Shown here: positions 3,260 through 47,449 of the stretch, one piece after another | How positions within the stretch are numbered: position 1 is the stretch's first letter | Layout of the letters: every line of letters starts with the position of its first letter | Source of the DNA: a virus | Reading direction: 5' to 3' (one strand) | IMG/VR virus record: IMGVR_UViG_3300042557_000098 | Length of the DNA stretch: 64,000 nucleotides | Translations under genes and position numbers: made by a program | The notes under the pieces: generated by a model | What the model was told of the DNA's origin: nothing | The model's input: the letters and a program-made list of their open reading frames with translations, nothing else | The model's database searches: none

Positions 3260-6200
3260 TTATTTTTTACAGCCTTTATCTTTCTTATTTAATACGTCAT
3301 CTATTTCTGAAGCTTCAACAGGAGGAGTTTTTTGACCACCTATGAATACTGATTTAATAGTATCATCACTAACCTCATCTACCTTTATGAACCCATTATC
3401 AATCTTAGACTTGTTAGCAAAGTCATAGAACTCATTAGCTCTAAAACTATCACCCCAAGCATTGATTGCTTTGTAGACAATGAATGTATATCCTGATCTA
3501 TTATATGTAATTAAAGGATCAACACCATCATCTATTACCTTCTTAAATAACCCTTTCTTAATGAAAGAGAAATCTGATGCTTTGACCATCTCTGCTCTTG
3601 TCTTTCCTTGAGGTATTTCTTCCCAACTATATACAATAATATCCTTAGTGCTCTCTCTAGACAACGTTGATATCTTAATCAATTGAGGAATCTTCTTATC
3701 TCTCATTGCAATATTTGCACCAGTGTTTAAGATAGTCAATGCATTATTATCATATCTAGTCTTTAACTTACCATCTTTTTGCTTCTCTGTTTTCCATTGT
3801 GCTTTCTTGTGAGGAACAATTTCATCATCATTCCAGTTGTTTCTTTCAAAAACATTCAATGTAGCAAAGTCAGCTAAGTTAGGTAAAGTTTCTAACTTGG
3901 ACAAAATATCATTGTATTCTTCTACAAAGTCATCATAAGGAATAAGAGAAGTAAAAGATATAGCAGATGTAGATAAACCAGATTGTAATATAGAAAGCTT
4001 TACTAACTTCTTATACAAAGGAAGATCACCTGTAGACTCCATATAGTTTCTCAACTCTTCAAAGCCATATATAACTTTGTTTTGATCATATACTTTGTTA
4101 TCCTTACCTGGCATGTAAAGATTATTAGGACGCTCTTCTTCTGTTCCTGCAAACTTAGGAGCTAAAGAGTTTACAATAACATTGTTATGTAAAACGTGCT
4201 CAGGATCATTTTTAATATCATTAAAATAATCTGTAATCTGTTTTGCTGTACCATCTTTAGATAGTAGGTCTCTCTCCATATTGATCTTAAATGTAGGATT
4301 GATTTGCACAGCCCAGTCAAAAAGATCATTAACAGCTTTTCTAGCCACCTTAACAAACTGTCTATCGTTCAAGTTAACGTAAGGTCTTAGTACGCTTTGA
4401 AGCACACCTCTTACCCTTCTTGTATCAGAAGTCAAAGCTGTCTGACCAATAGCATTTCTACTATCACGTAATCCTATTCTAACTCTACCTATGAAAGATT
4501 TATTTAATAAGTTATCTACAGAAGATATAATAGTTTCTCTAGCTTGAGATAACTGCTCTTCTTTCTTAAAGATTAACATTGGGTCATTGAACGCTGTTGT
4601 ATCAAAGTTAGATCCTTGTACCACTTTAAACAATTGATTAGCCATCATGCCATACTTCAAGAACTCATTTAATATGAATTGTTGTTCAGCTTTTCCAGCA
4701 ACATCAAAAGACTTCTTACCTATGTTCTTCTCAAGAGCAGCAACGTTAGGAATACTATTCAATCCTTGTACTTTGCTTGGGTCCACCTTATATTTCTCAG
4801 AGTCTTTAATAGCAGCTACAGTTGAGTCATTAAATAACCAAGTGTATCCACTGTTTTCTAACTCACGTACATAATCACGAATGATTGGCTGGTTCATAAA
4901 GTAGGCCACCTCTTTAATTGGAACTCCAATCTTAACTAAGAACAACCATGTAGGAGCTACGTTAGGACTTGCACCTAACTCCATAATCCAAGGTCCCTTA
5001 GCAATATCCACATATCCATCAATAAACTGACCAATGATATCAGATATGTCATATTTATTGTTAGCATCTTTAATACCAGAAAGACTAGGCACTGTTCTAC
5101 CACCAACCCTCACTGTATTATATTTGCTAAAGTTAACATTAGCATCTCCTAACCACTTCTGATCAGACTTGCTTAATTTGTACATCATTGATTTATCAAC
5201 ATACATATTAGAACGTTGGTTCTGAGCATGGTTAGTTTGAGCTACAGCAGCAAGACCAATTGCATATTTACCACGTACAAACGCTTGTCTAAGTCTAGAC
5301 ATGAATATTTGATTCAACATATTGTCAGTGGAAGAATAATCAAATGAACCAAGACCTAACTTGTCTGTAATATCAATTGACATGTCTTTTAATAACTTAG
5401 CATTGTTTGGTGTAACCAATCTAGTGTAGTTAGCCTCACTTCCAATAATGTTTTCTAAAGACTGAATGTATTGATTCTCAATAGACTTCTTGTATAATAG
5501 ATTGATTATTTGATCTTTAGCTTTGATACCTCTAGTAAATTCTTGTGTTAATTCATCTTCATTAATAAGACCATTTAAGTTTCCAACTATTGCTGTAATT
5601 AACTTACTTGCATTAGACTTCTCTTCAATCAAGTCTTCCAACATGATTTGTTCTTCTGCTATGTATCTGTCAAGCTCTTGTAATTGTTCTTTAGTTAAGA
5701 ACTCTCCTTTGTCAAACATTTCTTCAAACTTCTTGATAGCATCCTTACCCATTCCAAAGTATGGAATCAACTTAGGCTTACCATCTTTTCCTTTGTAGAT
5801 GTTCTTGAAATACATAGATAACTTATCTATGTCAAAGTCAGATCCAACCTTCTGAACTAATGCAGCTGGTACAACAACAGAGTCTCCAAACTCTTTAGGA
5901 AGGAACTTAGCTATCTTAATTACATCCACAGAGTTTTGCTTCTGTGTAGGAATACGAAACGCAACACCTTTCAATAGTGCCTGACCTTCCTTAGTCTCAT
6001 TCAAATATTCTAACAAAGCTTCATCAGACATGTCGCTATCAAACCATCTTCCTACCATCACCTCAGCTACACGCTCTCCACCTTTCTCATAAAACTTTAA
6101 TACATCTGACTCAAACAATCCATTCTTTCCTACAGGTCTTACTGATTCAAATCCTGTAGAAGGAATCTGTACTTTTAATCCACCATTAATCTTTGGACGT

Positions 6201-9200
6201 ACAATGTTCTTATCCACTATAGAATAAAGAATGTTTCTCACTTGACTGTACATAGGGCTAGCTTCAATCAAAACTTGACCTTTCTCAAAGCCCACAAGTG
6301 CAGCAACTATATTACGATTCACTTCTCTTTTGAATAACTCAGAACGTAATGTTTGAGCAATCTTCTCAGGATCTACAATCTCAAATCCTGCTTTGGTTTG
6401 TTTAATACCTAATCTATCAAGAAGGTTTTTATAACCAATGTCAGTCATTTCCTCTAGTAAGTCTTGGTTCTCCAATATCTCTTTGAAGAATGGAGATGCA
6501 TTAGCCATAGCTGTTTCATCTTCTAAATTTTCCCAAGCTTCTAAACGCTTGTTAAAATCCTTCTCATCAGACATGAAGTCAAAAGGCACACCAGCTTGTA
6601 AGAAGTCTAATGTTACCAACTTAGTAATCTGAGAACCTCTTGTTACAAAAGCCTCATCTTTAGAAGGCACCTCAGACTGTACACTTATAATACTAAATGG
6701 TATATTAATCTTATCTGTATCTGCAATAGGAGCATCATTAAAGTTACCCTTGCTATCATATAATTTAACCAATACATCAGCTCCCACCTTTCTACCACTG
6801 TCAAATACAGCGTAGTCAATGTTATTCTCTTGCATCTTGTTGTATAACTTGATAGCATTTGAATCCTTATTGATTTCATGTAACACTCTGTAACTCAATG
6901 GATAAAGAGCAAACTTATCTAATACAACATCATTGTAAGATTGTTTACTCATCTTAGCCCCAGCTACAATAGGTTTCAATGGAGTGTATGCACTTTTAAC
7001 TTGAGGATTGCCTGCTTCTAATAAATTTGATTCATTAGGAGAAAGATCTTGACCCTTGTCTCTTTTCTCAAAAGCAACATCATATCTGTATTGTCTTTCC
7101 TCATTAGGGTTCCAGTTTGAAGCACGTATTCTAAAGTTGCGATATGCTTGCATACTAATCATACCACCACCATCTGTTTCAGTGAATGATGAATACTCTT
7201 TAGCAAATCCTTCTACATCTGCTACACCTTTGACATCCTCTAATGTGATGGTTTTGAAATAGTCAGCTGTGAAGTCAGTGTATCCAAGATCATCAATATC
7301 TGTATAGTCATCATTATATACATTATTCATTACAGCATTTAAACCTGCTGAACCATATATGATAGCCTGACGTGGAGATAAGAAACTCTTAATACGCTTC
7401 AATTCATCTTTGTAGAAATATGGATCTGAGTATACAAGCTTATGTAACTCTATGTTATTAATCATATAGTTAACAGATAAGTACTTGATATTCACATCAA
7501 CATCATTCTCACTTAAAGATCTTTTCTTTTCAAATTCCACTCCATTAAAGTTAAAACCATTCTCATCTTCAGAAAGAATATTGTAATTAGAATACACAGC
7601 TTTTCTTCTCTCAATATCCTTCTTAACAAATGCGTCTATAGCAGTGTTTATTCTTGATTCAAAGTGTGTGTAAACATCCTCAAGAGATTTCTCTTTGCTT
7701 GGATCATATGATACAATATCTTCATGTAATGATGGTCCTAATATATTCTTGAAGAAACGTAGGTCTGTAGACTTTCTAGTCTCGTTTTCATCTTGTACAA
7801 TCTTACGACCTTCTCTAGAAACAGCTAACTCTGACAAGAAGTATCCTTTAAATACTTTATGTATTGAGCTATTGTCTTTCTTTAAACTATTTAATGTAAC
7901 TGTATTACCTACATAGTTTGCCCAGTCCAAAGAGGCATCTCCTGGAACAAGGTTCATATAGTATCCTGCTAGGTTAAGATTTAACTCTTCCTTCAAACGC
8001 TCACTAGGTGTAAGACTAGCTGGGTCTTTTCTTTTGCCAAGGCCCTCATCAATCATACCACCTGCATACGCTGTGCTTAATATCTCATCACCCTTAGGTA
8101 ATTTGTTTCCTGAATCTTTATCAAATATCTTGTCCATGAATACAGAACCAGTGTTAGCAAAGTTATCTGTAAGTAAGTATTCATATCTAGAGCCAACTAA
8201 TTGTTTCTTATTGCTTATCTTAGTTAAGAAATCACGTAAGCTACTAATAGCATTACCACCTATGAAAGACTGTACTCTATCACCTTCAAGGTTAAAATAG
8301 GTACTTTCAAAGTCAGGATTTTGAATCTTAGCAAGCATGTCAGCAATCTCCTTAACTCTACCTGCAGTGTTAATTGTCTTACTAGAAATAAACTTAATCT
8401 GCTCAGCTTCTAATAAGTTCTTCTTTATACCAGCAACAGCTTTGTTAAAGTCAGATTCAAAGCCAAGTCTTCTAATCATTCTAATAGGAACATCCACTCC
8501 TAAAGACTTCATAAATAATACACTTCTTTCTAATGATCCTAACTGTTGATTCTCAATGTTCTTCTTAATAGCTACGTACATTTTGTTAGGAGCATCATAT
8601 CTATAGTACTTTCCTAAGTTCTTTTGTATAGAGCTAATGATACTGTTTTCCATATCAATAGCAATTTGCTTAGATGCTGTGCCTACAGACATATCAGTTG
8701 TCACTACAGTTCCATCAGGAGCTGTGTACACTGTAACCACGTCAGGAGCTTGTCCCTTCATTACATTGTAGAAAGAAGTAACCAGTTGAAGATCTGCATC
8801 AGTTTTTATATTAGCATAAGGATTCAACTTCTCAGAAGAAGGTTGTCCTGTAAGTCTTTGGTATATTACACCATATTCAGGTTTTTGAGACTCTACAAAC
8901 TCACGTAGTTTTTCCATCATATCATCTACTGTATCTGAGTTGTATAAAGCATTCTTAAGGTCTATATACACCTTGCTCATTGGTATTAATCTAACACCAT
9001 TGATTGAAGAAAGTGTTCTTTTACCTCTTGCATTTCTGTATGGAATGGTAGCTAACAATAATTTAATAGCAGCGTTAGCCTTCTTAAACTTGTCTATTTT
9101 CTCTGACTCTTGATAGTCTCCTCTACCTGTATTATTCTCATTTGTTGTTTGAGTACTATCGTTCTCATCAAATTCAATAGAATAAGATAACAATTGTTCT

Positions 9201-12200
9201 TCAAAGATTTGAGTTATCTCATCCCAGTTTTTATCTATGATTGCAAACAACTGCTCAGCTTTTGCTACCTCAGGAGCTACATCTTCTTTTGTAGCAATAC
9301 CTTCTTTCATTAGTTTAGCAGCAATGTTCTTAATCTTATCTACAACTGTATACTTAAGATTATCTTTAGCTTCTTTATATATTACAGCTCTGTTCTTAGC
9401 AGGGATATCAAATAGGCTTTGATTAGTAGCAATAAGATTTGTAAGAGTAGAATAGGTCATTTGTTGAATAGTATCATGTACTTGTTCTCCTGTAAGACCA
9501 TTAGCAATTAAACTATACTCACTAGTTGGGTCACCTATAGCATCTTCAACATCAATAATACCAGGCTTAGCTAATGCTAACTTAGATTGATATGGAGATG
9601 CGTTCTTATAATAACCTTCTCCTATTCTCTTAAATAACTCTTCTGTGTTTCTTGCAGCTTGAGGACCTAAGAAATATTCTTTAATAAAGTTTGCTAAATC
9701 AGTAAATAACTTAATGATGTAAGGTCTACCATCAGCAGGCTTAGGTGGAACTTTCTTATCTAATACATATTCTCTAAACTCTTCTGCTAGTTGTTCCTTG
9801 ATTTGACCAGGAGTTGCTTCTGAGTATTTAACTTCTTGTCCTGTAACTCTATCTACAAAGCTGCCCTTTCTATTCTTGAATTCATTTACAATAGCCTTGC
9901 GTTCCTTAGGGTCAGAGAACATATTCCAGATAGCATGAAACACTTCATGATATGCTGTCCCAGCCTCTGCATTAGTGTATACATAGATAGCACCATTCTT
10001 ATACATACCCCAAGCCTTTCTTCCTCCTGTAGCTTTGATGACATTCTTCACTCTATATACAGGAACATTAGGTAGGTTAGTTCTTAACCATTGTTCTAAC
10101 TTCTTCCAGTTTTCAGATTTGAATGTCTTTATTTCATTCTCTAATATCTCACGTAAGTCTCCATCTTCATCTTCTAATAATGCTTCTTTTATAGCACCAC
10201 TTCTTACACTAGGGCCCTTTGTTGTAATTTGTGCTGGTGCCTTTTCTTCAATCTCTATTACTACATCATCTGCATCTGCTTCATCAGGTATTGCAAAAGC
10301 TTCTTCATCTTCTTCTACAGCAGTTGCCTTCTGTACAGGTACATTTAAGAAGTTAGCAATAGGAGCTTTTAAAGCTCTTCCCATATCTTCCTTCTTAATA
10401 TTTGCAGCAATTAAAGCTTCCTCAGCTTTAGCTAAGTCTTCTCCTTTTAATATCTTAATACCATTATCAATATCTCCTTTAGCCAATAAATTACGATTAG
10501 CTGTGAAAGCTATTCTAGTTCCCTTTGGAGTAATAAATATATTCTTAGTCTTACCATCTAATACAAACTTTGAACCAGTCTTAGTTTCTATTGGAGCTTC
10601 TTGTGTTTCTCCTACAGTAAATGTTTCTTCTTCTTCTGCAGAAACAGGTGTTGCAGCTGTAGGCTTAATGCCACCAGGAACAACAGTCTTAGGCACAGTT
10701 CTAACTATCTCTGTAATAGTAAAGTTGTCAGCAGCATCGCTAAGTGTAAAGTATACACCCTCTCTATTAGTATCTTCAGGAGATTCTAACGCAGTAATAT
10801 CAGTAAACAAAGGAATCTCATCAGCTGTTCTTCCCTCATCTGATAACAAATATGTTTGATAGTTTTGCCATTCTTTTGTTTGTGGAATACCATTCTCACC
10901 AATACCTATGATTTCTTCATATGTTAAATTATATTCATCTGTGTTTTGTACCTTTCTAGCATTAACATTATTGTACATGTTTTGTAGAAGAGTGACAATT
11001 GCATCTTTCTGAGTTTCCATTGCTTGTGGTGTAAAAGAAAGACTCTCTCCTTTACCAGAGAAGAACAATCTTAATTCACCATCTGCTCTCTCAAACCATA
11101 TACTATTATAACCAGGGTCTTTGCCTTCTTTAGGTTTGCCCCAGAATGTAACACTTCTTAACCAGTCAATTAAATATTCACTTCTAGCTTCTACACCACC
11201 ATCATCAAACACATTGTTAGATAATTGATTAAGAACCTCATAGATAGTTTCAGCTTCTTTAGTATTGAACAGTCTGTTCTTTAACTTAACATAAGCATTA
11301 TCTAATACTAAGAATATTCTACCAAGCACATCTGTAAACTCTGTGCTTCCTTTACTAATATCTTTTGCAACAGTAGGCACTTCAATTAACTGCTTTTCAA
11401 CTAAGTCTTTGTCTTCAATTAATCCAGCAGCCTTTACAGACACAGCAGCACTTGGATCAGTAACCTTCTTACCATCAGGTAATGTAATACTAACTCTAGT
11501 AGGTCTTCCAAAAGAAGGAGTGATTGATTGTAATCTAACAGCAGGGTCTTTTAATGTTTCATTTCTGAAAGCAATATATTGATCTTTTAACTCCTTTCTA
11601 GTTTGCTCAGGTGTGTTGCTTCTGAACATTGTTTCATTACCAAAGTCAGGACCCCATTGTAAACTCTCGTCAGGCATTACTTGGAACACAGCATTCTCTA
11701 ACTTATCTTGACCTTCTGCAAGAGGTTGCCCATCTTGACCTACCAATACAAAGTTACCATTACCTTGATCTTCAACCATTACTAATGCAATAGTCTTTGT
11801 TGGATCTATGTCTGTATTGTTGTTCTGTAAATATGAAGTAAGTCCTGGTATAATGTTGTCTTCATTTGCAGAAGTAACTAAGACACCAAATATATTATTC
11901 TTATTAGGGAATGAGTTGAACTTATTACCAAAGTAATTTGCACGTGCATAGCCTAATATATTCTTACTAGCAACAGTAGATGTAACTAATATCTTTGGAC
12001 CTTTCTTAGAAGTAGGTTCGTACTTAACACTATATGGAGTATTGTCTAATTGTTCCTTACTTAATGTACCAATAACTGCATTAATAAGTTTACCATCACT
12101 CTTTAACTTTTTCTCTTGTTCTTTCTGTAACTTATAAGCTTTAGCAACATCTTGAAATCTAGTTAAAATTGCTTCTCTAGCTTTTAAGTCTTGTTCATAT

Positions 12201-21285: not shown

Positions 21286-24200
21286 TTATTTATATTTGTT
21301 TAACCAGCCACCTTTGTTATATTTTTCCCAACCTTTACCCAGATTTTTATATGCAGGTTTAAATGATTTAAAAACCTTTTGTGGATTAAGAATGTTATAT
21401 TCACTATTATCTCTAAGACCATATATACCAAGATCTTCTGCTATTTTAGCAGCCTCAGGACTTAGTCTTCTAAAGTCAGGATTAAGATTCTTAACTGGTT
21501 CCATTTGACTAAATGTTTTCCAGTCAACTATTCTAGGATTTTCAACAAACTCACCTCTATGTATGTATGCATCTCCTCTTCCCATTGCATAGTTTTCAGC
21601 ATTCTCACTAGCAAGTTTTGGATAAAATCCTTCTACATCTCTAAGAGGATTTGGAGAACCTTCCATATGCATCCAAGTATTAGGAGTTGCATAGAATCCT
21701 CTTGAAGTTGGAGAAGTTGCACTTTGAATAGGCAATCCTTCTCTAGTTGTTCTAATAGCACCTGCGTCTGAAATAACACTAGGACCACCATGATATACAG
21801 TTTTAGGTAATTCACTATATGGAATTGCTTCAAACTCTGGTGTCATGTATGGAGCTAGTTCTCCTGTTGCTGGTTCCTTATATCCAACGTTATCATAAGG
21901 TAAAGTTGTTCCTTTGTAAGGAGCAGGAATTGGACCTCTTACAACTTGTTCTGAAGCAGTTGGTTTAGGAACTTCTTTATATCCTTTTAACCAATCTTTC
22001 TTTAATATTTTTCCTTCAGTTATAGGTACATCTCTTTGAGCTATTTGACTCCATTCTTTTTTACCATATCTTTTTCCCCAGTCAGAAGCTGCTCTTGGTA
22101 CCTCAGCAATAAAACCTTGTCCATACTGATCTGCTATATCAAATCTAGGAGTATAGTAAGCTTTACTAAATTGTCTAGTAGTATTAAAGTTACCTATACT
22201 AGTAGGAGTTACATTTTGTTTAGCTCTAAACAGACCACTCTGTACTGCATCTTCCATTCCTTCTTTACCAATTCCTCTAAACATTGCATCCTTAGGAATA
22301 TTATATTGATATGCTTTAGGATTAAGTCTCCAAGCGTTGGAAAGTAATCCAGACTCCATTGATTGAGTAACCTTTCCTGGAACTTTCAAAGCACTTCCTA
22401 AAGGATCTATTCCTAATGCTCCTGTACCAGCAGCCAATGCTAAAGATGTTGCAATAGCTTTAGGATCTCTTGCTGCAACTGATTCTCCTAGAGCATCTGC
22501 TAAGACACCTACGTATGTAGCTGGATTAATATATTCATCAAATATTTCTCCTGCCCCACCAACACTACTAGGAAACAATCTAGCTTTATCTTCTGTATAC
22601 CAAGATCCAGGAGTATTCAAATCTCCTTTTGTAGCTATGTTCTTTTTTCTTTCTGCTATAACTTCTTTAGCAGTATTTAATGCTTTCTTCTGAGCTTGGT
22701 CAGAAGTAGCTACTGCTTCTAGTCTTTCTCTATCTGTCATCTTTCTAGGAATGACATTTCTTGTAGCATCTTGACGCATTGGTTCAGTAGCATATTTCTT
22801 TAACCAATCTCCATTCTGAGCCATTGGATACTCTGTAACCTTCTCACCATCAAACTTATAATCTTGATCAGGATACATCATTTGTGTATCACCTGTATCA
22901 GATACACCAAGTACAGGATAGTCAACTCCCTGCATAGTGATTTCATTAGAACCTATCTCTGTTACCTCACCTGGGTATGCCCATTGTCCTCTGTCATCTC
23001 TTATTGGTTCACTGTAGTTATCTAACCATCCACCATTTTTCTTTTTATTCAACGTTCTATACATTGCTTCTTGTGGAGATTCAGAAAAGTCAACTGTATT
23101 TATTCTCTCTAGGTTTCTTTTAAACATAGGATCTGATTCATAAATACGTCTTTCTTCTTCTATTGCAGCTTTTCTTAATTGTGATGGAGTTAGTTTTTTA
23201 GCAGGTTCACCACTTTGTTTTGCAAGTTCTTGGTAATCCTTTTCTAGTATTTTCATTCTTCTTTGAATCGCCTTCTCCATATTGTAATTAAACCAAGTGT
23301 TTGTTATACCACTTGGATCATTTGCACTTGCATCTCTTATTTCTGTTGCCTTTTGATCACCTACTCTAAATACATTAATTTTTTTACCTTTATAGTCTTG
23401 TGCTTCAGGATTTAATGTATATACATAAGGTTCTTTACTTTCTCCTCTTGTTGCCTGTCCATGTTTATATGAATTATAAACCTCAACACTGCCATCAGGG
23501 TTTGAACCTAATACAATATTAGTATGATCTGGAATACCTTTTTCATTATAGTATTGTATAAAATCTCCTGGATTTAAGTTTCCTTTTTGTATTATATCAG
23601 TTAACTCATTAAATTCAATAGGTCTTCCTTTTACTTTTTCAAATCCAGCAGCTTTATAGTTTTTATCAAATGTTGGATTATATTCTACTACTTTACCTTT
23701 TGTTCTTGATTCTCTTACACCTTGTTTTTCATTTCCTACACCAGAGAAGTCAACACCCAAATCTTTATACACATTACATACACCACCTATACATGTTAAT
23801 GATTGATCTATTCCAGACTTTACAGCACTTTCTGATAATTGATATGGAGTGTTAGCTTTAATAGCTTCTATTACTTTCCATGCTGCAGCTTGTCCTATGT
23901 TTCTTTGAGAAGTTGTAATTGGTTTTATTTCCTCTTTCTCATTAGGAATAGTTTTTCCATCTTGACTTATGCTCTTAGGTTTGAAGTCTAATCCTTCTTG
24001 GTAGAACTTCATCTCTTGACCATTCTGAGCACTTGCTTTTGTCTTCTTAGTATACTTACCATTAGCAGGAGCTGAGCCAGCTACACGTGCGTACGTGAAT
24101 CCTACAGCACCTGGCATGCTACCACCCATAGCAAATCGCCCACCCCATGCAGGAGAATAGTCCCTACCCTTAATGTTATATCCAAGTCCTACAAAGTCAG

Positions 24201-24312
24201 GACCTACAGACGCTTGGACATCATTAGGATTAGCTTTCTTGCCATAGTTATCCTTAGTCTTTTTCTTTAAGACTAAGCCTCCTTGTTCATATTTGTCTAA
24301 CCAGTTAGCCAT
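21286..24312 (-). CDS. 1008-aa virion-associated protein with an NlpC/P60- or CHAP-like cysteine peptidase domain (Cys174/Cys178 ... His263). Shares a GFTYARVA octapeptide with the capsid protein and has an internal G[GD]WLxxY..EP.R.D repeat
   Basis: Cys...His papain-fold signature (LTCIGGVCNVY ... PDHTNIVLG) between roughly residues 140 and 300; long ORF with an ATG start; TAATG-coupled to the downstream gene. Confidence 0.75.
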   Translation of the reverse strand: MANWLDKYEQGGLVLKKKTKDNYGKKANPNDVQASVGPDFVGLGYNIKGRDYSPAWGGRFAMGGSMPGAVGFTYARVAGSAPANGKYTKKTKASAQNGQEMKFYQEGLDFKPKSISQDGKTIPNEKEEIKPITTSQRNIGQAAAWKVIEAIKANTPYQLSESAVKSGIDQSLTCIGGVCNVYKDLGVDFSGVGNEKQGVRESRTKGKVVEYNPTFDKNYKAAGFEKVKGRPIEFNELTDIIQKGNLNPGDFIQYYNEKGIPDHTNIVLGSNPDGSVEVYNSYKHGQATRGESKEPYVYTLNPEAQDYKGKKINVFRVGDQKATEIRDASANDPSGITNTWFNYNMEKAIQRRMKILEKDYQELAKQSGEPAKKLTPSQLRKAAIEEERRIYESDPMFKRNLERINTVDFSESPQEAMYRTLNKKKNGGWLDNYSEPIRDDRGQWAYPGEVTEIGSNEITMQGVDYPVLGVSDTGDTQMMYPDQDYKFDGEKVTEYPMAQNGDWLKKYATEPMRQDATRNVIPRKMTDRERLEAVATSDQAQKKALNTAKEVIAERKKNIATKGDLNTPGSWYTEDKARLFPSSVGGAGEIFDEYINPATYVGVLADALGESVAARDPKAIATSLALAAGTGALGIDPLGSALKVPGKVTQSMESGLLSNAWRLNPKAYQYNIPKDAMFRGIGKEGMEDAVQSGLFRAKQNVTPTSIGNFNTTRQFSKAYYTPRFDIADQYGQGFIAEVPRAASDWGKRYGKKEWSQIAQRDVPITEGKILKKDWLKGYKEVPKPTASEQVVRGPIPAPYKGTTLPYDNVGYKEPATGELAPYMTPEFEAIPYSELPKTVYHGGPSVISDAGAIRTTREGLPIQSATSPTSRGFYATPNTWMHMEGSPNPLRDVEGFYPKLASENAENYAMGRGDAYIHRGEFVENPRIVDWKTFSQMEPVKNLNPDFRRLSPEAAKIAEDLGIYGLRDNSEYNILNPQKVFKSFKPAYKNLGKGWEKYNKGGWLNKYK

Positions 24313-25644: not shown

Positions 25645-28600
25645 TTAACATTCAAACCCAGTGAAAACTACATTTACGTTATCACAACCTGCAATACATT
25701 GACCATCAATTGCAGAAGGAAGACTTCCTATTCCAACAAAAGTTGAACCACTGCCTGATGAATTGTTATTAAGTATTGTAACAAATACAGTGACATCACC
25801 ATATGGAACAGTAGATACAACTACATCTACTATAGTATCTGCATTCACATTACCATTAAGAATTACTGTTGAATCTATATAAATTTCTCCTAATATATCA
25901 GAAGCAGTTCCAGTAACAGTAGTTACATTTCTTGTAACAGGGGCTGCAGTTGTAGTGGTAGTAGTAGTAGAGGAAGTACTAGTTGTAGTTGTACATACAA
26001 CACATGTTCCTACATCAAATGTAGCAATTCCAGATACATTAGGATCATTAATTATTGCAGCTCTATAACTATTACCAGTGCGAACCCATACTGGTACACC
26101 AGCTGGAGCTAATACAAACTCATCACATTGAATTGCAGTTGCAGAACAGAATGGAGGATCAGTTAATATTACGTTTGTCATTGCTAAAGCAGTACCACAA
26201 GCATCATCAGGACCTGCTGAACTATATCTATAAAGAGATGGTTGTGGTGTAGTGGTAGTGCTAGTTGTAGGAGTAGGAGTTGTTGTACTTGTTGTAGTAA
26301 CAGCTACACGTATAAATTCTCCTGCTGTTAATCTACAATCAGGTTCTGTTGTAAAAGATCCTGGAATTAACATACAGTCAAAAGGCACAGCAGTTGTGGT
26401 AGTAGTAGTAGTACTAGTAGAAGTAGAAGTTGTTGTGGTAGTAGTTTGTTGTGAAGCTGTTCCTCCTAAAAGACAAGGATATCCTACCACTACAGCTGTA
26501 CCAGTTAGGTTACAGTATATAATTCTTGTTGTTGTTGTAGTTGTGGTTGGAGAAGGTATTGGTACAACTGCCACTGCTGTGACATCACAACCTTCATTTA
26601 ATCCAGAATAGAAGAAACTGTTTTCTCCTATATAGAAGTTAGGAAGATATGTATGAAAACTCACCCAACTCTTTGTATTGAAATTAAATGAAACAGTCCA
26701 TGATTTGTTACAGAAGTATTCAAGATCTGTCACCTCGATATATTTCTTAACTACAAGATCACCAGCTACTGGTTGGTCAACATAAAACTGTTTAACCACC
26801 TCATCATAAAATACCTCTTTACCTGGTTGTGGAACATAGTCTAACTTAGTAATTATTACTCTTTCAAATACACTATCATACACACCATGAATACCAATAT
26901 TCTTGAAATGATTATCTGTGTTAACTGTTGGGAAGTATCCTAGTATTTCAAATGCTAAATGATTTGTAAAGAATCTATTAAGACCAGAACCAAATCCTGA
27001 AATATCAGTTGCTTGTGTTCCTTGAATTAAAAATACTTGACATCTCTTAGCATCAATAGTTATCTGCCCTTGAGGTATCTTAAGCAACATCTTATTTTGA
27101 CAACCAACATATCCAAGATCTGTCTCAGCATAATCAATAGGAGGAGCACCACTAAATAATGAAGGATTACCTAAATAAGCTGCTTGAGGATTACTTGTAT
27201 CAATAGTTAACAAGTTACCATATAGTAATGTCTTGTTTTCAAATCTAGCTAATGTAGCTCTATTTTGAATACCATCTAAAGATATAAGATTACCATAGTT
27301 TTGAGGGAAATCAAAGAAGCTCACTGGACGATATATCAACCAGCTATTTATTCTATTATCAGAATAGCTTTCTTGTCTGTCAGAATATATTGCTCTGAAT
27401 GGGAAGTTTTTATAACACAATTGCTGTACCCAATCTGCAGGTAAGTGAGAGAAGAAGTTCTCTACGTTCTGTTTAGAGAAGGTTGTATTGTAATAATAAG
27501 TATTATCAAAAGCAATAGGAACTCTACTTTCTTGGAACCAACTGTCAGGAATACCTGAACTTACGTGTGGATAGAAATCACCTTCTAAGTTATTAAATGC
27601 CTGACGTAAGTCTACATTAATAGAACTCTCTACATAATAGTAAGGAATACCATAAGCAAATAAATACATCTTACCACTATATACATAATTCAAAGAACCA
27701 GCTGTCACTGTTCCTGGAGCAGGTGTAGTTGATGTAGTTGTTGTAGCATTGTCAGCAATATCATCATTAGGACAATCAAGATAATGTGCTTTGGTAGAGA
27801 TTATATTCTTCATTACAGTAGCATTTACTGTATAATCAGATAATATAGATCTTGCTGAGTACCAATATTGTGGGTAAGCTACATTACCTATCTCATCATA
27901 GTATATATCAGAATCATCTGGAGCATTCACTCTATTGTCAATAAAGAATGGAAGCTTTGTTTTAAATCCAAACTTACCAATATATGTATCACCACCAAAT
28001 ACCACTTCAGGATCATTAGCAGATATTGCACTGAATATTCTTTGGAATCCTGTGTCAATGGTTTGATATGAATAGATTTGTCCATATTGAGCATTATTAA
28101 TAGCCTTTATAGAACCATAGTAAGATACTACTTTGATATTTCTCTGAGCTTCAGGACTAGCACAGTTTTCTGCTTCTGAAATTGTAAATCTTGAATTGTC
28201 ACTAATTTGACTTATACCTGCTACAACAAGAGAAGGAGTATCATTAGGATATGGTAAAGGTGATACAGGTATTCCATTTCTAACATCAATAGTTTTAACA
28301 TAAACTGAAGACTCTCTGTTCCAGTTATTAAGATCATAATTATCACCTACATTCTGTACACCTGGAAATACGTATTGAGCTAGATCAAGTTGTCTTTGTT
28401 TAATTCCTTGATTATTAGAAACATCTGCACTATAGTCATAACTAGATATAGAGTTAAATGAATATGCAAAGTTTTGTCTACTAATACCATTGATATAAAT
28501 CTGTAAGTAAGTTTGATATGCTGTAAAAAATGCTATAGGACTAAATCCCCCAAGATCAGCTATTCTCTTACTAGAGTTCAAAGCATCAACTTGTGTTTGT

Positions 28601-31194
28601 TCAGTGATAAGCTTATACATAGCATGTTTCTGCACTTCAACAAAATGAGCTCTTCCTCCACCAAATAATACACTCTCTAACTTAAGAACATTACCTAGTG
28701 TAGGTTGTCCAAAAGAAGTCTCTGGAGAATTAAATACTTGTCTGTAAGCAGACTCAGGATTATTAAATCCATCTAATTTATTAGGATAACAATTTAAGTT
28801 TTCACTTGTGTTGCTAGCTACTATTTTATAATTAGTTGTTCCTGATACTCTTACAGGGAAAGTGGTAGAATTAAATGTTTTAACGTTGTTACCACTTACA
28901 AAAGTACCTACTGTTATACTTTGTAATGCTCCTGTAACTGAATTTGTATAATTAAATGTAACAGAAAGAAAAGAGGAATTATTTGTAATTGTATAAGTAG
29001 TAGTTGTAGTATTTGTAAATGTTGCAGAACCACTATTTACAACAGGAAGTGTAATAGAACATATTTCAGTGGTGCTACTATCAAATGCTTGTGTATCTGG
29101 TTCTCCTGTAAAACAGTTTGTGTATTGTAAGATACCAGCAGTTGTCACTGATACAGAGAACGTATCACATTGAGAATTATACGCATTGTTTCTCTCAAGC
29201 AAGAATGGATCTTCATTTAAGTCATTGTATGGATAGTTAGGATAGTAGTAGTATGTAGCATTAGGATCAGCAGGATCTTCTCTAGTGTATTTACCTACAT
29301 TTCTAAGAATACCTTTAGCAATAATAGATTTGTTTGTACTTCTATTACCCCTTACTATTTTAAATCCAGCAATAGATGCCTTCTCTTCATTTGTTAAACT
29401 AGAGCTTTGAATAGCAAATGCCACTTGTTGTACATCTATCTTCACACCTATTGGATAGATGGCATTAGCAACTTGCATTACAGGTTCTATTTGACCTCCA
29501 GAATATATAATACTTGGACTCTCAAAGTAAGGACTTACAAGAACATCAGGAAACTTATGGTGTCTAATTGGTTTACCAGCTAAGTCTCCCCATACGTCTA
29601 CGTTACATGGATACTCTTCAGTAGATTCCCAATATGCAAAGTCTCCAGATTGATAAGGATAGGCATCTCCTATCTTCCTAGTATTGTCTGTAGGAACAGG
29701 ATAGGTTGTAGATACACTAGCTGTGTTATATATTTTCCAATTAGGACTATATTTATAAAGTGTAACAGGTTCAACATCAGTAGCAGTACCTATAAAGTCA
29801 GGAGTTGCGTTAGGACCAGTTTCATAAACAGGAGTTAAATCATTAGAAATTGGTGCTCTACCAGGAATATGAAAACCATCTGTTTGCTTACCATTGGTTA
29901 ATAAGAATACAATTTCAAATGCATAGACCTCATCTCTTAAATATCCTCTTAAGTTGGAAGTATAAAAACCATTAGCATAGGTATTACCAGCTGGTAGTTT
30001 ATATGTCTCCCATTGAAGTTGTACTTGATTAGCAACGCTTTGATAGTTGATTCTATCAATAGAAGTTAAGTTGTCCCAAACAATAACATCTTGTACGTTT
30101 GTTACATCTTGAGCAATCTCATAATAAGGAAACTTTTCAAGAACATCTGCAAGACTCAAAGGAATCTGAGTTGTGTTCTGTCCTGTATAAGTGATTGATG
30201 TAGACCTTTCTTCAATGTTATATGTTCCCACTAATTCTACAGTGGTACCATTATTAATGGTTTTTATAACAGCTAAGTTAAAGTATTGGAAGTATCCTGT
30301 AACATCTAAGTTAGTAATATTTAATACAATAGATTCACCTACAGAATATTGAAAATCAGGAGTTGTTATTTCTGTATTAGCAATAGATGTAGGATTAGTT
30401 ATAGAGAAGTAGGATGTATAAGCATCTCCTGAAGCATTGCCATATTGAATAGCAAACTGATAAGTACCAGCTTTTAAATCTCCTCCTACAACAATTTCAG
30501 AAACTTCTATATTAGGAATTTGAAAGTTAGGTTGTACATCTAACTTATTACAATCAAGAACTCCTTGTCCATTTACTACTAGAATAGTTGGAGCACAAGT
30601 GTTATCTCCTTCATATGAAAAAACATATGGAACTTGCTCAATATTAATATATCTTCTTGGGTTCAATCCATCAGTCCAATAAACCTCAGTGGTACAGTTA
30701 GTTATCTTATGTACAGCTTTGTGTATTGGATAGTTTATATCAAAGTTTAAACAGTCTGAGTTAGCACAAACTGTCAACTCTGTATCAGGAATAGGAGTAC
30801 AAAGTGTGCGATATACACAATCATTGTTATCCATATATCCAATCTCACTTCCTCCTGTTTGAGGATTCGCTAAGAAGAATATGTGTTTGTTTTTCTCTTG
30901 TATGAAATGAGTTCCAATAAGCTGAAAACCTTCAGGAAACTCTAAGCAAGCTTCATTACTTGGTTCATTCTGATAGCTTACAGAATTAGCGTCAAAGTTT
31001 TCTAATGCTGCGTTTAGAGCATAAGAAAGCTTACCCTTCTGTATTTGATTTACAGAAGAGTCCATGTCTAATCCAACTCTGCCAAGATTAAATTCTTGTC
31101 TTACGTTAGATGTTCCTTGATTATCTATTCCATCCTCTGCCATATCTTGAGCTTCTATTTGGTAATTCATATTGTCCAAAGCGTTGTAAGTCAT
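25645..31194 (-). CDS. 1849-aa tail protein with Thr-rich linkers and Cys-containing small domains in the C-terminal third (tail hub or receptor-binding candidate)
   Basis: Long ORF with an ATG start at 31194; the start overlaps the upstream gene by 74 nt, so the true start may be an internal Met. Poly-Thr/Ser stretches lie at roughly 25900..26600 in DNA coordinates. Confidence 0.8.
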   Translation of the reverse strand: MTYNALDNMNYQIEAQDMAEDGIDNQGTSNVRQEFNLGRVGLDMDSSVNQIQKGKLSYALNAALENFDANSVSYQNEPSNEACLEFPEGFQLIGTHFIQEKNKHIFFLANPQTGGSEIGYMDNNDCVYRTLCTPIPDTELTVCANSDCLNFDINYPIHKAVHKITNCTTEVYWTDGLNPRRYINIEQVPYVFSYEGDNTCAPTILVVNGQGVLDCNKLDVQPNFQIPNIEVSEIVVGGDLKAGTYQFAIQYGNASGDAYTSYFSITNPTSIANTEITTPDFQYSVGESIVLNITNLDVTGYFQYFNLAVIKTINNGTTVELVGTYNIEERSTSITYTGQNTTQIPLSLADVLEKFPYYEIAQDVTNVQDVIVWDNLTSIDRINYQSVANQVQLQWETYKLPAGNTYANGFYTSNLRGYLRDEVYAFEIVFLLTNGKQTDGFHIPGRAPISNDLTPVYETGPNATPDFIGTATDVEPVTLYKYSPNWKIYNTASVSTTYPVPTDNTRKIGDAYPYQSGDFAYWESTEEYPCNVDVWGDLAGKPIRHHKFPDVLVSPYFESPSIIYSGGQIEPVMQVANAIYPIGVKIDVQQVAFAIQSSSLTNEEKASIAGFKIVRGNRSTNKSIIAKGILRNVGKYTREDPADPNATYYYYPNYPYNDLNEDPFLLERNNAYNSQCDTFSVSVTTAGILQYTNCFTGEPDTQAFDSSTTEICSITLPVVNSGSATFTNTTTTTYTITNNSSFLSVTFNYTNSVTGALQSITVGTFVSGNNVKTFNSTTFPVRVSGTTNYKIVASNTSENLNCYPNKLDGFNNPESAYRQVFNSPETSFGQPTLGNVLKLESVLFGGGRAHFVEVQKHAMYKLITEQTQVDALNSSKRIADLGGFSPIAFFTAYQTYLQIYINGISRQNFAYSFNSISSYDYSADVSNNQGIKQRQLDLAQYVFPGVQNVGDNYDLNNWNRESSVYVKTIDVRNGIPVSPLPYPNDTPSLVVAGISQISDNSRFTISEAENCASPEAQRNIKVVSYYGSIKAINNAQYGQIYSYQTIDTGFQRIFSAISANDPEVVFGGDTYIGKFGFKTKLPFFIDNRVNAPDDSDIYYDEIGNVAYPQYWYSARSILSDYTVNATVMKNIISTKAHYLDCPNDDIADNATTTTSTTPAPGTVTAGSLNYVYSGKMYLFAYGIPYYYVESSINVDLRQAFNNLEGDFYPHVSSGIPDSWFQESRVPIAFDNTYYYNTTFSKQNVENFFSHLPADWVQQLCYKNFPFRAIYSDRQESYSDNRINSWLIYRPVSFFDFPQNYGNLISLDGIQNRATLARFENKTLLYGNLLTIDTSNPQAAYLGNPSLFSGAPPIDYAETDLGYVGCQNKMLLKIPQGQITIDAKRCQVFLIQGTQATDISGFGSGLNRFFTNHLAFEILGYFPTVNTDNHFKNIGIHGVYDSVFERVIITKLDYVPQPGKEVFYDEVVKQFYVDQPVAGDLVVKKYIEVTDLEYFCNKSWTVSFNFNTKSWVSFHTYLPNFYIGENSFFYSGLNEGCDVTAVAVVPIPSPTTTTTTTRIIYCNLTGTAVVVGYPCLLGGTASQQTTTTTTSTSTSTTTTTTTAVPFDCMLIPGSFTTEPDCRLTAGEFIRVAVTTTSTTTPTPTTSTTTTPQPSLYRYSSAGPDDACGTALAMTNVILTDPPFCSATAIQCDEFVLAPAGVPVWVRTGNSYRAAIINDPNVSGIATFDVGTCVVCTTTTSTSSTTTTTTTAAPVTRNVTTVTGTASDILGEIYIDSTVILNGNVNADTIVDVVVSTVPYGDVTVFVTILNNNSSGSGSTFVGIGSLPSAIDGQCIAGCDNVNVVFTGFEC

Positions 31195-34745: not shown

Positions 34746-35369
34746 TTATGAATTACAGCTAGCATTTAGACTGAATGAACCAGAGGCACTGAAACAGTTC
34801 ACTGTATCTGTTCTTAAGCGATAGCTACCTGCAGATAAGATGTTAGAAGGTAATGTTGATGTCCAAGTTCCTGGACTCATGCTTGTCTGAGTGTAAGTGA
34901 ACGTATATAAAACTGTATCATTAGCAGCATTCATAATATAACATGCATATGTTCTTGTACCACTTCCACTATAATAGTATCCATTAGGAGTGATCAATGC
35001 TGTTCTTCCTGCACTTACTGTGAACAACGCTGATTCTCCACCTGCACAAGATCCTACAGCACTTGTGTCACCAGTGAGACAAGGTACAGTAAATGTAGTT
35101 GTAGATGTTGTTGTAGTAGATGAAGTGCTACTAGTTGTAGTGGTTGTTGCACCACTTAAAAGTATATCAAGATAATTTGTACAAGTGCCTGTAGATTGTA
35201 CTCTGATAACAGAAGCATTATCAGGCACATTTAAAAGATTGTATCCTGCTACTAGTGCAGCTCTAGATACCCCTGTTGCTAGAGCAGTGGTATATCCATC
35301 TACATTTGAATAAAGGTTAAAGGGACCTACGTCTGTCCCTGCTAAAGTTAATGTTACTAAGACTGTCAT
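34746..35369 (-). CDS. 207-aa fibre-like protein: shared N-terminal GPFNLYSN module, then a poly-Thr linker and a Cys-containing C-terminal domain
   Basis: N-terminal paralogy with the 25189..25623 product; followed 40 nt downstream by a strong intrinsic terminator. Confidence 0.7.
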   Translation of the reverse strand: MTVLVTLTLAGTDVGPFNLYSNVDGYTTALATGVSRAALVAGYNLLNVPDNASVIRVQSTGTCTNYLDILLSGATTTTTSSTSSTTTTSTTTFTVPCLTGDTSAVGSCAGGESALFTVSAGRTALITPNGYYYSGSGTRTYACYIMNAANDTVLYTFTYTQTSMSPGTWTSTLPSNILSAGSYRLRTDTVNCFSASGSFSLNASCNS

Positions 35370-36739: not shown

Positions 36740-38629
36740 TTATTTTAATTTAGCTTCTAACTCTGCAATACGTTTTTCTAATGCTGCTATTTTTAATGTG
36801 TGAACATCCATATAGTTTACACTTAACTTTTTTTCTCCTGAAACAGCATCTGGTAATACAGACTGCACCTGTTGTGCTGAATATCCATATCTAACTTGAT
36901 TAGATTCTTCATCTGTACGAATAAACTTAATTACATCTATTGCAGATAAGTCTATGCTTGGATTAGTCTCAAGCACATTCTTATATCTAATGTCAGAGGT
37001 TTCAAAGAATCCTGTAGCACTGATTGCTGTATTAGATACCCATCCTGAAGCTGTAAATGCATAAAATGAAAAACCTAATGCTGAGTTATATATACCTTTA
37101 TCTACAACATCATTTACAAAGTTACCAGCAGTCTTTACTTCTGTAGCACTATATACACCTCCACTACATTCAAGACTTTGTCCTGAGCCACCAACAGCAT
37201 TAATAGATACATATCTAGTAAAATTAACTACAGTTCCATTATCTGTTATAGGAGCATCACCAAGTGTTGAAGCACTTGTAAATTTACCTATTGTATTAGT
37301 TGTTCCAGAAAGTGCTACTGATGATCCTGATGATCCTGAAGTTCCAGATGTACCATTTCCACCATTAGCACCACTTGTACCACTTGAACCAGATGTTCCA
37401 CTTGAACCAACCCCACCATTTGCACCTGAAGTTCCACTAGTTCCACTAGTTCCATTTGGACCAGTAGGTCCAGCACCACCATTTGCACCTGAGGTACCAG
37501 ATGTACCATTTGTTAATCCACTAGATCCTGATGTTGCAGAAGTACCTGAAGAACCAGAAGTACCACTTGTTCCAGTAGTTCCAGAAGACCCAGAAGACCC
37601 AGAAGATGCACTTGTACCAGACGAACCAGAAGACGCACTTGTTCCTGAAGAACCAGAGGTAGCAGATGTACCACTAGTTCCAGAAGTTCCACTTGTTCCA
37701 GAGGAACCAGAAGATGCACTCGTCCCAGATGATCCAGAAGATGCAGACGTTCCAGAACTTGCTGAAGTTCCAGCAGTTCCAGTTGTTCCATTAGTACCAG
37801 AAGTTCCAGTGCTGCCTGAAGTACCAGAAGATCCATTACCTCCAGCAGCTCCTGCTAAGTTTACATTCCAAGAAGTATAAGTTCCTGAACCTAAAACTGC
37901 TCCAATATTTACTACTAAAACTCCTGTTAAACTATCATATGATGTAACAGATCCTGTCATAGTATTACTAACATCATATGCTATAGTTGCAGATTGAGCA
38001 ACACTGTATGCTAGGTTTGTTCCAACAGTTAATGTTTTTGAACCTAAACCTATTGATAATGAATCAGTAGAAGTAGTTCTATATCTATCTCCATCTTGAC
38101 CAGCAGTTCCACTTGTTCCAACAGTTCCAGATGTACCAGCTTCACCACTAGTGCCACTTGCACCAGCAGTACCACTTGTGGCACTAGTTCCATTACTACC
38201 ACTTATACCAGAAGAACCATCAACTCCACTAGATCCATCTTTTCCAGCTGTACCAGCTGTACCACTAGTTCCATCAGAAGATATACCAGAACTTCCATCT
38301 TTTCCAGAAGAACCAGATGAGCCATCAGTACCAGAAGAACCAGAAGAACCTGATGTACCTCCAGAACCATTTACTCCAGAAGTTCCAGTTTTACCACTAG
38401 AACCAGATGTTCCAGAAGTACCATTCAAACCAACTACACCATTACTAAATGCGTCATCTATTTTTGATAGAGCACAGTCTAGATTATCTCCAGTTTGAAT
38501 TCCTGAATATGGTAAGTTAGGTCCATTATATATAACACGATCTGCTGTTGTTTCACAAGGGAAAGAACCACAGTTTTCGTTTGGATGATAGTATGCGTTG
38601 TAGCAAGGATCGCCAGGATTACAAGCCAT
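36740..38629 (-). CDS. 629-aa tail fibre with long collagen-like G-x-x repeats and a C-terminal peptidase S74 intramolecular chaperone auto-processing domain
   Basis: About 300 aa of GTS/GSS triplets. The C-terminus reads SDIRYKN...GYSAQQVQSVLPDAV...LEKRIAELEAKLK, the S74 SD.R.K signature plus its terminal coiled coil. Confidence 0.85.
   Translation of the reverse strand: MACNPGDPCYNAYYHPNENCGSFPCETTADRVIYNGPNLPYSGIQTGDNLDCALSKIDDAFSNGVVGLNGTSGTSGSSGKTGTSGVNGSGGTSGSSGSSGTDGSSGSSGKDGSSGISSDGTSGTAGTAGKDGSSGVDGSSGISGSNGTSATSGTAGASGTSGEAGTSGTVGTSGTAGQDGDRYRTTSTDSLSIGLGSKTLTVGTNLAYSVAQSATIAYDVSNTMTGSVTSYDSLTGVLVVNIGAVLGSGTYTSWNVNLAGAAGGNGSSGTSGSTGTSGTNGTTGTAGTSASSGTSASSGSSGTSASSGSSGTSGTSGTSGTSATSGSSGTSASSGSSGTSASSGSSGSSGTTGTSGTSGSSGTSATSGSSGLTNGTSGTSGANGGAGPTGPNGTSGTSGTSGANGGVGSSGTSGSSGTSGANGGNGTSGTSGSSGSSVALSGTTNTIGKFTSASTLGDAPITDNGTVVNFTRYVSINAVGGSGQSLECSGGVYSATEVKTAGNFVNDVVDKGIYNSALGFSFYAFTASGWVSNTAISATGFFETSDIRYKNVLETNPSIDLSAIDVIKFIRTDEESNQVRYGYSAQQVQSVLPDAVSGEKKLSVNYMDVHTLKIAALEKRIAELEAKLK
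37300..38450. repeat. Degenerate tandem 9-nt (GGN-ACN-AGN) repeats encoding the collagen-like Gly-x-x array
   Basis: Visible periodicity (ccagaagaaccagaag..., gttccagaagttccact...). It also generates the spurious opposite-frame ORFs. Confidence 0.7.
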
Positions 38630-46918: not shown

Positions 46919-47449
46919 CTAATCTAATTTGTTAAGAAAGTTGTCATTTATAAACCTATAACTTCTGATTGGAGCAAGATCTGTAAGTGTAACTTGTTGA
47001 ACCTCAACTCCCCACTTCCTAGCTTCCACTCTAACTTTCTTTGTCAAAGTGTTGTCAAGTTCCTGATCTGTACATTCCTCCATGGTCATTGACATAATAA
47101 CGTTTTTTATTATACTTTGAGACATGTCTGACAATGCGTCTTGTGCATCAAACACCTCAAGTAGGAATATCTTTACATCAGCTATCTTGTATTTTACAAC
47201 TCCCTTGACAACAATGTTTTGTTTGTCCAAGGTGTATAAAGATTGAGCATCAAGACTAAGTGTAGTAGTTACTACGTGGTGATCTATCACCTCATCAAAC
47301 AAAGGAATCTTAAAATGTAGTCCAGGTTCAAGAACACTGTAGAATTTTCCACACCTTAGTAATACAGCTCCTTCATAGTCTCTGACAATAATAACTGGGG
47401 TTAGTTGTAACCACCAGTTAGTTATTATCTCAATCAGTTTATCAAACAT
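46919..47449 (-). CDS. 176-aa SPFH/band-7 (stomatin/prohibitin/HflKC-like) domain protein
   Basis: YEGAVLLRCGKFYSVLEPGLHFKIPLFDEVIDHHVVTTTLSLDAQSLYTLDKQNIVVKGVVKYKIADVKIF matches the SPFH core (E.AVV.RFGK...L.PGLHF.IP.ID.V..VD.R....D...TKD...V.VD.VV.YRI.D). Confidence 0.75.
   Translation of the reverse strand: MFDKLIEIITNWWLQLTPVIIVRDYEGAVLLRCGKFYSVLEPGLHFKIPLFDEVIDHHVVTTTLSLDAQSLYTLDKQNIVVKGVVKYKIADVKIFLLEVFDAQDALSDMSQSIIKNVIMSMTMEECTDQELDNTLTKKVRVEARKWGVEVQQVTLTDLAPIRSYRFINDNFLNKLD

Follow-up and report, generated by a model that had tools for sequence, protein, structure and literature searches.

A short peptide found in both the major capsid protein and a large mosaic protein of a crAss-like phage may be a docking signal that brings the second protein into the virion. 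The phage DNA comes from IMG/VR virus record IMGVR_UViG_3300042557_000098, of which we analysed a stretch of 64,000 nucleotides (the window). The peptide, GFTYARVA, occupies residues 71–78 of a 1008-amino acid cargo-type protein (24079..24102, minus strand) and residues 11–18 of the 517-amino acid capsid protein (45427..45450, minus strand). We tentatively favour, at somewhat less than an even chance, the explanation that the wider motif around it, [ILM]PGxxGF[TM]YAR[VT], is an uncleaved short linear docking motif of the capsid N-terminal arm (N-arm) and of the conserved core of the cargo protein, likely used for incorporation.

The sequence-only reading that first recorded the two copies gave their coordinates, strand and codons exactly; five of the eight codons differ synonymously between them. 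A six-frame search of the window that allowed up to three mismatches found no third copy, and no window protein beyond these two carries the pattern PG..G....R. When residues were shuffled within each of the 53 non-overlapping open reading frames (ORFs), the expected number of 8-mers common to different proteins was 0.017, and 5 of 300 shuffles contained at least one; the sole other 8-mer shared in the window proteome is a Thr/Ser low-complexity run. The octapeptide match is real, not chance. Two details of the first reading need correction. Its extended flank, [SG]....GK, is spaced unequally, with five residues before GK in the cargo protein and six in the capsid protein. The full octapeptide, although present in both window proteins, is not general: its VA ending varies by lineage, and GFTYART is the usual reading among cargo homologues.

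The functional unit is both wider and looser than the octapeptide, and reads [ILM]-P-G-x-x-G-F-[TM]-Y-A-R-[VT]. Among the first 20 positions of the capsid alignment (38–100% identity), P7, G8, G11 and R16 are invariant; in the cargo alignment these are P67, G68, G71, Y74, A75 and R76. The invariants P, G, G and R of the capsid family thus recur at the same spacing, PGxxGxxYxR, in the cargo family, in which the Y is invariant too. Comparison of the two profiles with hhalign paired the capsid block QTIPGLTGFTYARVAS (residues 4–19; 45424..45471, minus strand) with the cargo block GSMPGAVGFTYARVAG (residues 64–79; 24076..24123, minus strand) over 16 columns, with a probability of 93% and an E value of 3.5e-7. 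Across 34 distinct capsid and 72 distinct cargo DNA versions, all selected for matching the core motif, codons vary freely and residues are fixed, the Arg being encoded by six codons. Selection therefore acts on the peptide, and the earlier argument against a recent DNA duplication holds.

The motif is almost confined to these two families. The capsid N terminus is strongly conserved in a large clade, for which IMG/VR has over 600 relatives and the protein database 638 clusters. A DNA pattern for PGxxGFMYAR had 47 sites in 2.9 million viral contigs of IMG/VR, every one of them in a capsid N terminus or a cargo block. The pattern [x]PGxxGFTYAR had 20 sites in the 185,579 species genomes of GTDB: ten with recognizable gene context, of which eight fall in capsid genes of the crass type and two in cargo blocks on phage contigs binned into metagenome-assembled genomes (MAGs), and ten that are noise, being out of frame or lacking context. 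No bacterial protein with the core motif was found in these species genomes, a pattern scan that a degenerate host motif would escape. A separate scan for the variant GFSYGR also matched the C-terminal end, GGFPGTDGFSYGRN, of an unrelated family of tail-tip proteins of approximately 700 amino acids in viral contigs (for example, 4161..6320 and 5790..7901 on their contigs). This end, NPTPxxPRFGGFPGTDGFSYGR[ND]xx-stop, resembles PGxxGFxYxR; the downstream gene order is like that of the lambda L-K-I-J tail-tip genes, and the likeness to the motif is probably independent.

What had been proposed as a capsid candidate is the crassvirus major capsid protein (43927..45480, minus strand), identified through Pfam, PHROG and Foldseek. 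It matches Pfam Crass_capsid PF23898 (E value of 1.3e-27; 96.8 bits against a cut-off of 27) and the PHROG major head protein (E value of 1e-32). Its AlphaFold2 model has an HK97 fold, and the best Foldseek matches of that model are the phicrAss001 gp32 structures 7qoi, 7qoh and 7qof (E value of 4e-24; TM of about 0.65). The HK97-type body is predicted with confidence. The N-arm, residues 1–34 (45379..45480, minus strand), has a predicted local distance difference test score (pLDDT) below 50 and no secondary structure in the monomer model. Searches of Protein Data Bank sequences with phmmer returned no match to either the capsid or the 1008-amino acid protein, and tblastn against 50,697 phage records returned a single match, the 26%-identical capsid protein of Leptolyngbya phage Lbo-JY46. 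For phicrAss001, the deposited capsid sequence has 504 amino acids and the modelled chains in the mature capsid have 451–503 residues; at least one quasi-equivalent subunit therefore keeps essentially its whole chain, N terminus included. We read these differences in length, which are listed as residue counts rather than as ranges, as a terminal arm that is retained and may be ordered only in some environments.

The 1008-amino acid protein (21286..24312, minus strand) is a mosaic of the polyvalent type, a chain of modules with an apparent address and a variable payload, and from its synteny with phicrAss001 gp45/gp46 we infer that it is packaged as virion cargo and ejected. Its N-terminal module (residues 1–119; 23956..24312, minus strand) is predicted to be disordered and contains a conserved core of 37 residues, M62–G98, MGGSMPGAVGFTYARVAGSAPANGKYTKKTKASAQNG (24019..24129, minus strand), on both sides of which relatives diverge. 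The homologue counts given here refer to the best 120 of 1,647 homologues found, with a coverage profile over 119. The GFTYAR element occurs exactly once in 118 of the best 120, starting anywhere from residue 6 to residue 872 (67 in the window protein), within a near-constant block, [FM][AQ]MGGS[LMI]PG[AS][VT]G[FM][TMS]YAR[TV]x(2-4)P[SA][NE]G[KP]YAKKTxASAQNG; the rest is very mosaic. Residues 1–115 and 430–650 are constant, being present in more than 100 of the 119 homologues. The variable payload occupies residues 125–400 (about 15 of 119) and 800–1008 (13 of 119).

Four motifs of the GGWL[DN]KY type delimit every module of the window protein and occur in no other window ORF. They are NWLDKY among the first residues (24289..24303, minus strand), GGWLDNY at residue 430 (23014..23028, minus strand), NGDWLKKY at residue 504 (22792..22806, minus strand) and GGWLNKYK among the last residues, followed by the stop codon (21292..21306, minus strand). 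Nearly all of the best 120 homologues start with MxxWLDKY and end with GGWLNKYK. The pattern suggests a cassette system, with conserved junctions between which payload modules are swapped. ASAQNG (residues 93–98; 24019..24036, minus strand) is a module junction as well, as relatives diverge or carry insertions directly after it. KNG|GWLDKY is also boundary-like, with the sequence diverging or whole domains being inserted right after it, and the recurrent Asn-Gly at boundaries could in principle be a self-cleavage or deamidation-prone site.

In the window protein the payload at residues ~150–330 (23323..23865, minus strand) weakly resembles NlpC/P60-CHAP/Amidase_6 and is possibly a cell-wall hydrolase. 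Its Pfam matches, the sole basis of the 'lysin domain' of the first reading, are sub-threshold (Amidase_6, E value of 0.002; CHAP, E value of 0.09), so that this description is plausible but weak. Payloads in homologues include ART-PolyVal (PF18760) and Amidase_2. In some relatives the N-terminal module stands alone, at 95–142 amino acids (for example, as a 137-amino acid protein with no payload); in one genome of 112,946 bp it is encoded directly after the muzzle gene. In another relative an in-frame TGA just upstream of the AMGG..PG..GFTYAR core (5880..6010 of its contig) interrupts the module ORF, and the downstream gene call begins at the Met of MGGALPG, giving an N terminus laid out like that of the capsid protein. 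This arrangement may reflect a genuine split, a pseudogene or recoding of the stop codon. We considered an internal start at M62 of the window protein (MGGSMPG, a capsid-like N terminus) and did not adopt it, as this Met varies among homologues and the sequence before it shows protein-level conservation, even though this one relative is split there.

In the AlphaFold2 model, residues 1–135 of the cargo protein are almost devoid of secondary structure (pLDDT of 48.8) despite their conservation. Both copies of the motif are thus conserved yet predicted to be disordered. This combination is what peptides that fold when they bind a partner would show, and the copies have the look of linear motifs that take on order only in such a complex. 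We hypothesize that the capsid copy is part of a flexible N-arm and that the cargo protein, encoded after the muzzle gene, carries one N-arm-like peptide in its disordered but conserved 37-residue core. The cargo copy would bind the same acceptor as the capsid arm, which might be the scaffold or an N-arm site on the capsid or on an auxiliary protein, and binding would bring the cargo protein and its variable payloads (cell-wall hydrolase, amidase or ADP-ribosyltransferase) into the assembling particle. A common partner, the identity of that partner and incorporation driven by binding are the inferred parts of this scheme. One possible common partner is a candidate scaffolding protein of 427 amino acids (45516..46799, minus strand), encoded directly upstream of the capsid gene in the position of crAss001 gp31; its sequence features, an acidic disordered N terminus, a Gln-rich helical middle and a basic C terminus, suggest a scaffold.

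Several lines of sequence-based evidence support docking: the same invariants at the same spacing in both families, the profile match and the selection on the peptide; the layout of the cargo protein, with a single-copy address next to a payload, and the position of the cargo block after the muzzle gene; and the near-exclusiveness of the motif to the two families in IMG/VR and GTDB. The retained N-arm of the phicrAss001 capsid protein, the scaffold-like gene upstream of the capsid gene and the precedents of the P22 coat N-arm and the T4 internal proteins, both described below, point the same way. The idea, already present in the sequence-only reading, that the peptide is a common recognition element is accordingly kept here in its capsid-targeting form, which the position of the cargo block and the combination of conserved address and variable payload favour, and not as a prohead-protease cleavage site, against which the N terminus retained in phicrAss001 speaks. 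The module might be targeted into the head or, given where its gene lies relative to the muzzle gene, just as well reside in the lumen of the tail.

Other observations weigh against docking. A search of related phages for the peptide in both proteins had been proposed as a check; both genes could be paired in 26 genomes, and one more distant relative has a capsid copy but shows no cargo copy in the region retrieved. Across those 26 genomes, paired by contig, there is no covariation, as the capsid protein constantly reads GFTYAR[VI]AS and the cargo copy drifts (GFTYAR, GFMYAR, GMMYAR, GNMYARH and GFSYGR); covariation therefore gives no support. The more distant relative has a capsid protein of 68% identity that keeps the N-arm motif (PGLTGLTYGR), its N-arm reading IPGLTGLTYGRVSS, with no recognizable cargo copy. 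Neither WLDKY nor PGxxGxxxxR occurs in its 172-amino acid protein or in the first 1,115 amino acids of the next protein after the muzzle protein; that large post-muzzle protein (more than 1,115 amino acids) is SLT-like and has different junction-like repeats, KAQQG and EDGG. The capsid motif therefore predates the cargo copy and is more widespread, which fits a cargo protein that acquired an N-arm-like peptide and equally allows independent functions. In addition, the module stands alone in some relatives and may thus do something independent of any payload, for instance in the tail lumen. Finally, phicrAss001 has no such motif pair, as no k-mer of the gp32 N terminus recurs in another gene in the first 50 kb of its genome.

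Most of these points also bear on the possibility, a serious one if rather unlikely, that the two copies function independently. The capsid arm would then make an inter-subunit or scaffold contact, and the cargo peptide would bind something else, such as ring or muzzle proteins in the tail lumen, the portal channel or, after ejection, a component of the host envelope; the likeness would have arisen by old recombination or by convergence on a peptide with a Gly/Pro turn and a β-strand. The absence of covariation, the relative without a cargo copy and a module gene that directly follows the muzzle gene and can stand alone all agree with this, as does the location of the N-terminal part of phicrAss001 gp45 in the tail barrel and not on the capsid wall (PMC10172136). 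The tail-tip family that ends in GGFPGTDGFSYGRN is unrelated, and Gly-rich peptides of this type can therefore recur elsewhere. Two protein families of a single virion, however, would hardly arrive by convergence alone at identical, identically spaced invariants across 10 residues, and the motif is otherwise almost exclusive to capsid and cargo proteins across both databases.

A bolder proposal is mimicry of the capsid arm, which we regard as unlikely but worth stating. The cargo protein would have gained a docking copy of the N-arm and would occupy N-arm acceptor sites, so that any payload between the GGWLDKY junctions would be packaged and delivered. In this abundant clade of freshwater crassviruses, the acceptors might be the scaffold, or capsid subunits around the portal vertex that have no partner arm.

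Proteolytic maturation, in which a protease trims the capsid N terminus and cuts the cargo protein at the motif, seems improbable. In its favour, polyvalent proteins of phages are often processed (PMC5512222). The enzyme could be that of the host, for which 80alpha offers a precedent: its capsid and scaffolding proteins are cut by host Prp with no phage protease (PMC5744158). A model of this type would need a bacterial protein with the motif, yet the pattern scan, which a degenerate host motif would escape, found the core motif in none across the 185,579 genomes, and we therefore ruled out mimicry of a host protein of the 80alpha/Prp kind. An enzyme encoded outside the window is conceivable, as the window covers ~64 kb of a genome of roughly 100–115 kb. 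Within the window no protease gene is evident, as first noted from the sequence alone: no protease domain was found in the larger ORFs scanned against Pfam or PHROGs, and the slot between the portal and scaffold/capsid genes holds an SPFH/Band-7 protein. The third candidate is a papain-like domain of the cargo protein itself, suggested by its weak CHAP/Amidase_6-like (papain-fold) region, but this region is missing from most homologues that keep the motif. Cleavage is further opposed by the layout of the cargo protein, with one site per protein at a very variable depth (6–872) and away from the module junctions, and by the relative that has the capsid motif and no recognizable cargo copy. The phicrAss001 capsid protein is essentially full-length in the mature capsid (503 of 504 residues), which argues against removal of the homologous N terminus. 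Nor does the motif recur in other head proteins of the window (scaffold, portal or internal), as prohead-protease sites do; two window proteins carry it. A prepilin-peptidase site (G|FT...) was also considered and ruled out, as position +5 is not Glu and the sequence after the site has no hydrophobic helix.

Chance coincidence is very improbable, and the conservation analysis has already refuted it for the most part. In its favour, the identity spans just eight residues, and the exact VA ending is a lineage variant in the cargo family; the shuffled proteomes, the profile match and the place of both copies among the most conserved positions of their families all count against it.

The window as a whole belongs to a crAss-like phage with its late genes in the order of phicrAss001 (terminase, portal, capsid, ring proteins, muzzle and cargo). 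The terminase lies at 50037..52079, the P22-like portal, identified through Pfam, at 47449..50037 and the 1,849-amino acid muzzle protein at 25645..31194 (minus strand). Ring proteins 1 and 2 are also encoded in the structural block, and very large proteins are encoded downstream of the muzzle gene; in relatives, the gene with the motif-bearing module is directly 3′ of the muzzle gene. The SPFH/Band-7 (stomatin/prohibitin-like) protein (46919..47449, minus strand; Pfam E value of 1e-25) is encoded between the portal and scaffold-like genes, in a slot that many phages use for the prohead protease. Other window genes encode a tail-fibre-like protein with collagen triple-helix repeats (36740..38629, minus strand; Pfam E value of 2e-29) and a weak match to a C-terminal intramolecular chaperone (Peptidase_S74), an HU/IHF-type DNA-binding protein near the terminase end of the late block (53193..53579, minus strand) and, in an oppositely oriented gene block, a 2OG-Fe(II) oxygenase (60956..61582, plus strand; Pfam E value of 1e-20). 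The Thr/Ser-rich low-complexity runs (TTTTST and TSTTTT) are common to the muzzle protein and two smaller proteins of the structural region at 34746..35369 and 40856..42016 (minus strand); similar TTTTTT tails occur in relatives, and these may be linkers or glycosylation tracts. One relative has, between the genes for ring protein 2 and an IHF-like protein, a 258-amino acid ORF (10001..10777 of its contig) that has no counterpart in the window; its N terminus resembles a GIY-YIG homing endonuclease by eye, and the ORF is perhaps a mobile element inserted into the structural module. Near-identical phage contigs (for example, JBBAJS010000010.1; 111,986 bp) are binned in MAGs of Sediminibacterium (twice), Cytophagales, Bacteroidetes and Kapaibacterium, and the data hint at freshwater Bacteroidota as hosts of the clade. 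Further bins with such contigs (Clostridium, Tissierellales and Aquiluna) are probably mis-binned.

Crassvirus particles hold megadaltons of cargo protein, RNA polymerase included. The structural paper on phicrAss001 is silent on how cargo is selected for packaging, and mentions neither a protease nor a scaffold (PMC10172136). In the literature we searched there was no relevant paper with GFTYAR, WLDKY or ASAQNG, and no study of a crassvirus procapsid or scaffold. A 10-residue peptide common to the capsid N-arm and to the sole constant element of a variable cargo family provides a concrete packaging hypothesis that can be tested by mutation. If docking is correct, it would explain how hydrolase, amidase and toxin payloads are freely swapped in this clade, and would supply a tag for loading foreign proteins into crass-like particles, in the way that the T4 capsid targeting sequence (CTS) is used. 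If mimicry of the capsid arm proves true, crassvirus cargo proteins would have their first defined packaging signal in the motif, which would double as a portable tag.

The closest counterpart by genomic position is phicrAss001 gp45, short segments of which are attached to tail and portal proteins (PMC10172136). Like the cargo protein here, gp45 is encoded after the muzzle gene and has a Gly-rich, low-complexity N-terminal region. In contrast to the window proteins, gp45 and the phicrAss001 capsid protein have no common N-arm motif, and there is no significant sequence similarity between gp45 and the cargo protein. A comparison of the module profile with gp45, gp46, gp44, gp31 and gp32 gave one weak match, of 22 residues in gp45 (ANWLD..G.VLK..TK..Y; E value of 0.013). 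The gp45 segment, residues 799–820 in the C-terminal region (44381..44446), reads ANWLDTLAKSGVLKMNTKGEYT, against ANWLDKYEQGGLVLKKKTKDNYG at the N terminus of the module (55% identity over 22 columns, with a low probability), and could be a trace of common ancestry of the junction element. Polyvalent phage proteins, which are large mosaic virion-associated proteins that combine effector domains (Iyer et al. 2017, PMC5512222), offer a broader parallel, as the cargo protein is likewise mosaic and multidomain, is encoded among virion genes and has ART-PolyVal and Amidase_2 in its homologues. Cassettes bounded by GGWLDKY and a single GFTYAR core, unlike these features, were not found in the literature searched.

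Other systems are closer to the motif than to the protein that carries it. In encapsulins, a short conserved peptide in a disordered cargo segment binds the inner face of an HK97-fold shell, and encapsulin shells are among the Foldseek fold matches of the window capsid protein; encapsulin peptides, unlike the motif here, are terminal, have no sequence similarity to it and are not known to copy a segment of the shell protein. The N-arm of the P22 coat protein is the docking site for the scaffold C terminus in the procapsid and, after expansion, reaches into the neighbouring subunit (PMC9965877). The likeness extends to an HK97-fold coat with an N-arm, to the P22-like portal and to the scaffold-like gene that precedes the capsid gene, but the P22 N-arm has no sequence similarity to the motif, and no N-arm copy is known from the ejection proteins of P22. 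The capsid and scaffolding proteins of 80alpha share an N-terminal motif with ribosomal protein L27 that is cut by the host protease Prp (PMC5744158). As here, a capsid protein and a second protein of virion assembly have a short conserved motif in common, and 80alpha itself encodes no protease. The 80alpha motif, by contrast, lies at the N terminus of each protein and mimics a host protein that is essential, whereas the cargo copy here is internal and the motif was seen in no host protein of the GTDB scan; the likely hosts here are Bacteroidota.

The internal proteins of T4 are diverse apart from a common CTS that directs them into the assembling head (PMC3012670). The T4 CTS (IPI–III and Alt) is strictly N-terminal, whereas the motif here starts at residues 6–872; it attaches to the scaffolding core and is cut off by the gp21 prohead protease, whereas no protease is evident in the window; and it is no copy of a capsid sequence, whereas the peptide here duplicates the capsid N-arm. 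The systems are alike in having a short conserved peptide common to otherwise diverse proteins, which here means hundreds of mosaic payload proteins. Neither the pair of motifs nor the system of GGWLDKY cassettes turned up in the literature searched; in kind, the find is a variation on known capsid-targeting or cargo-loading signals.

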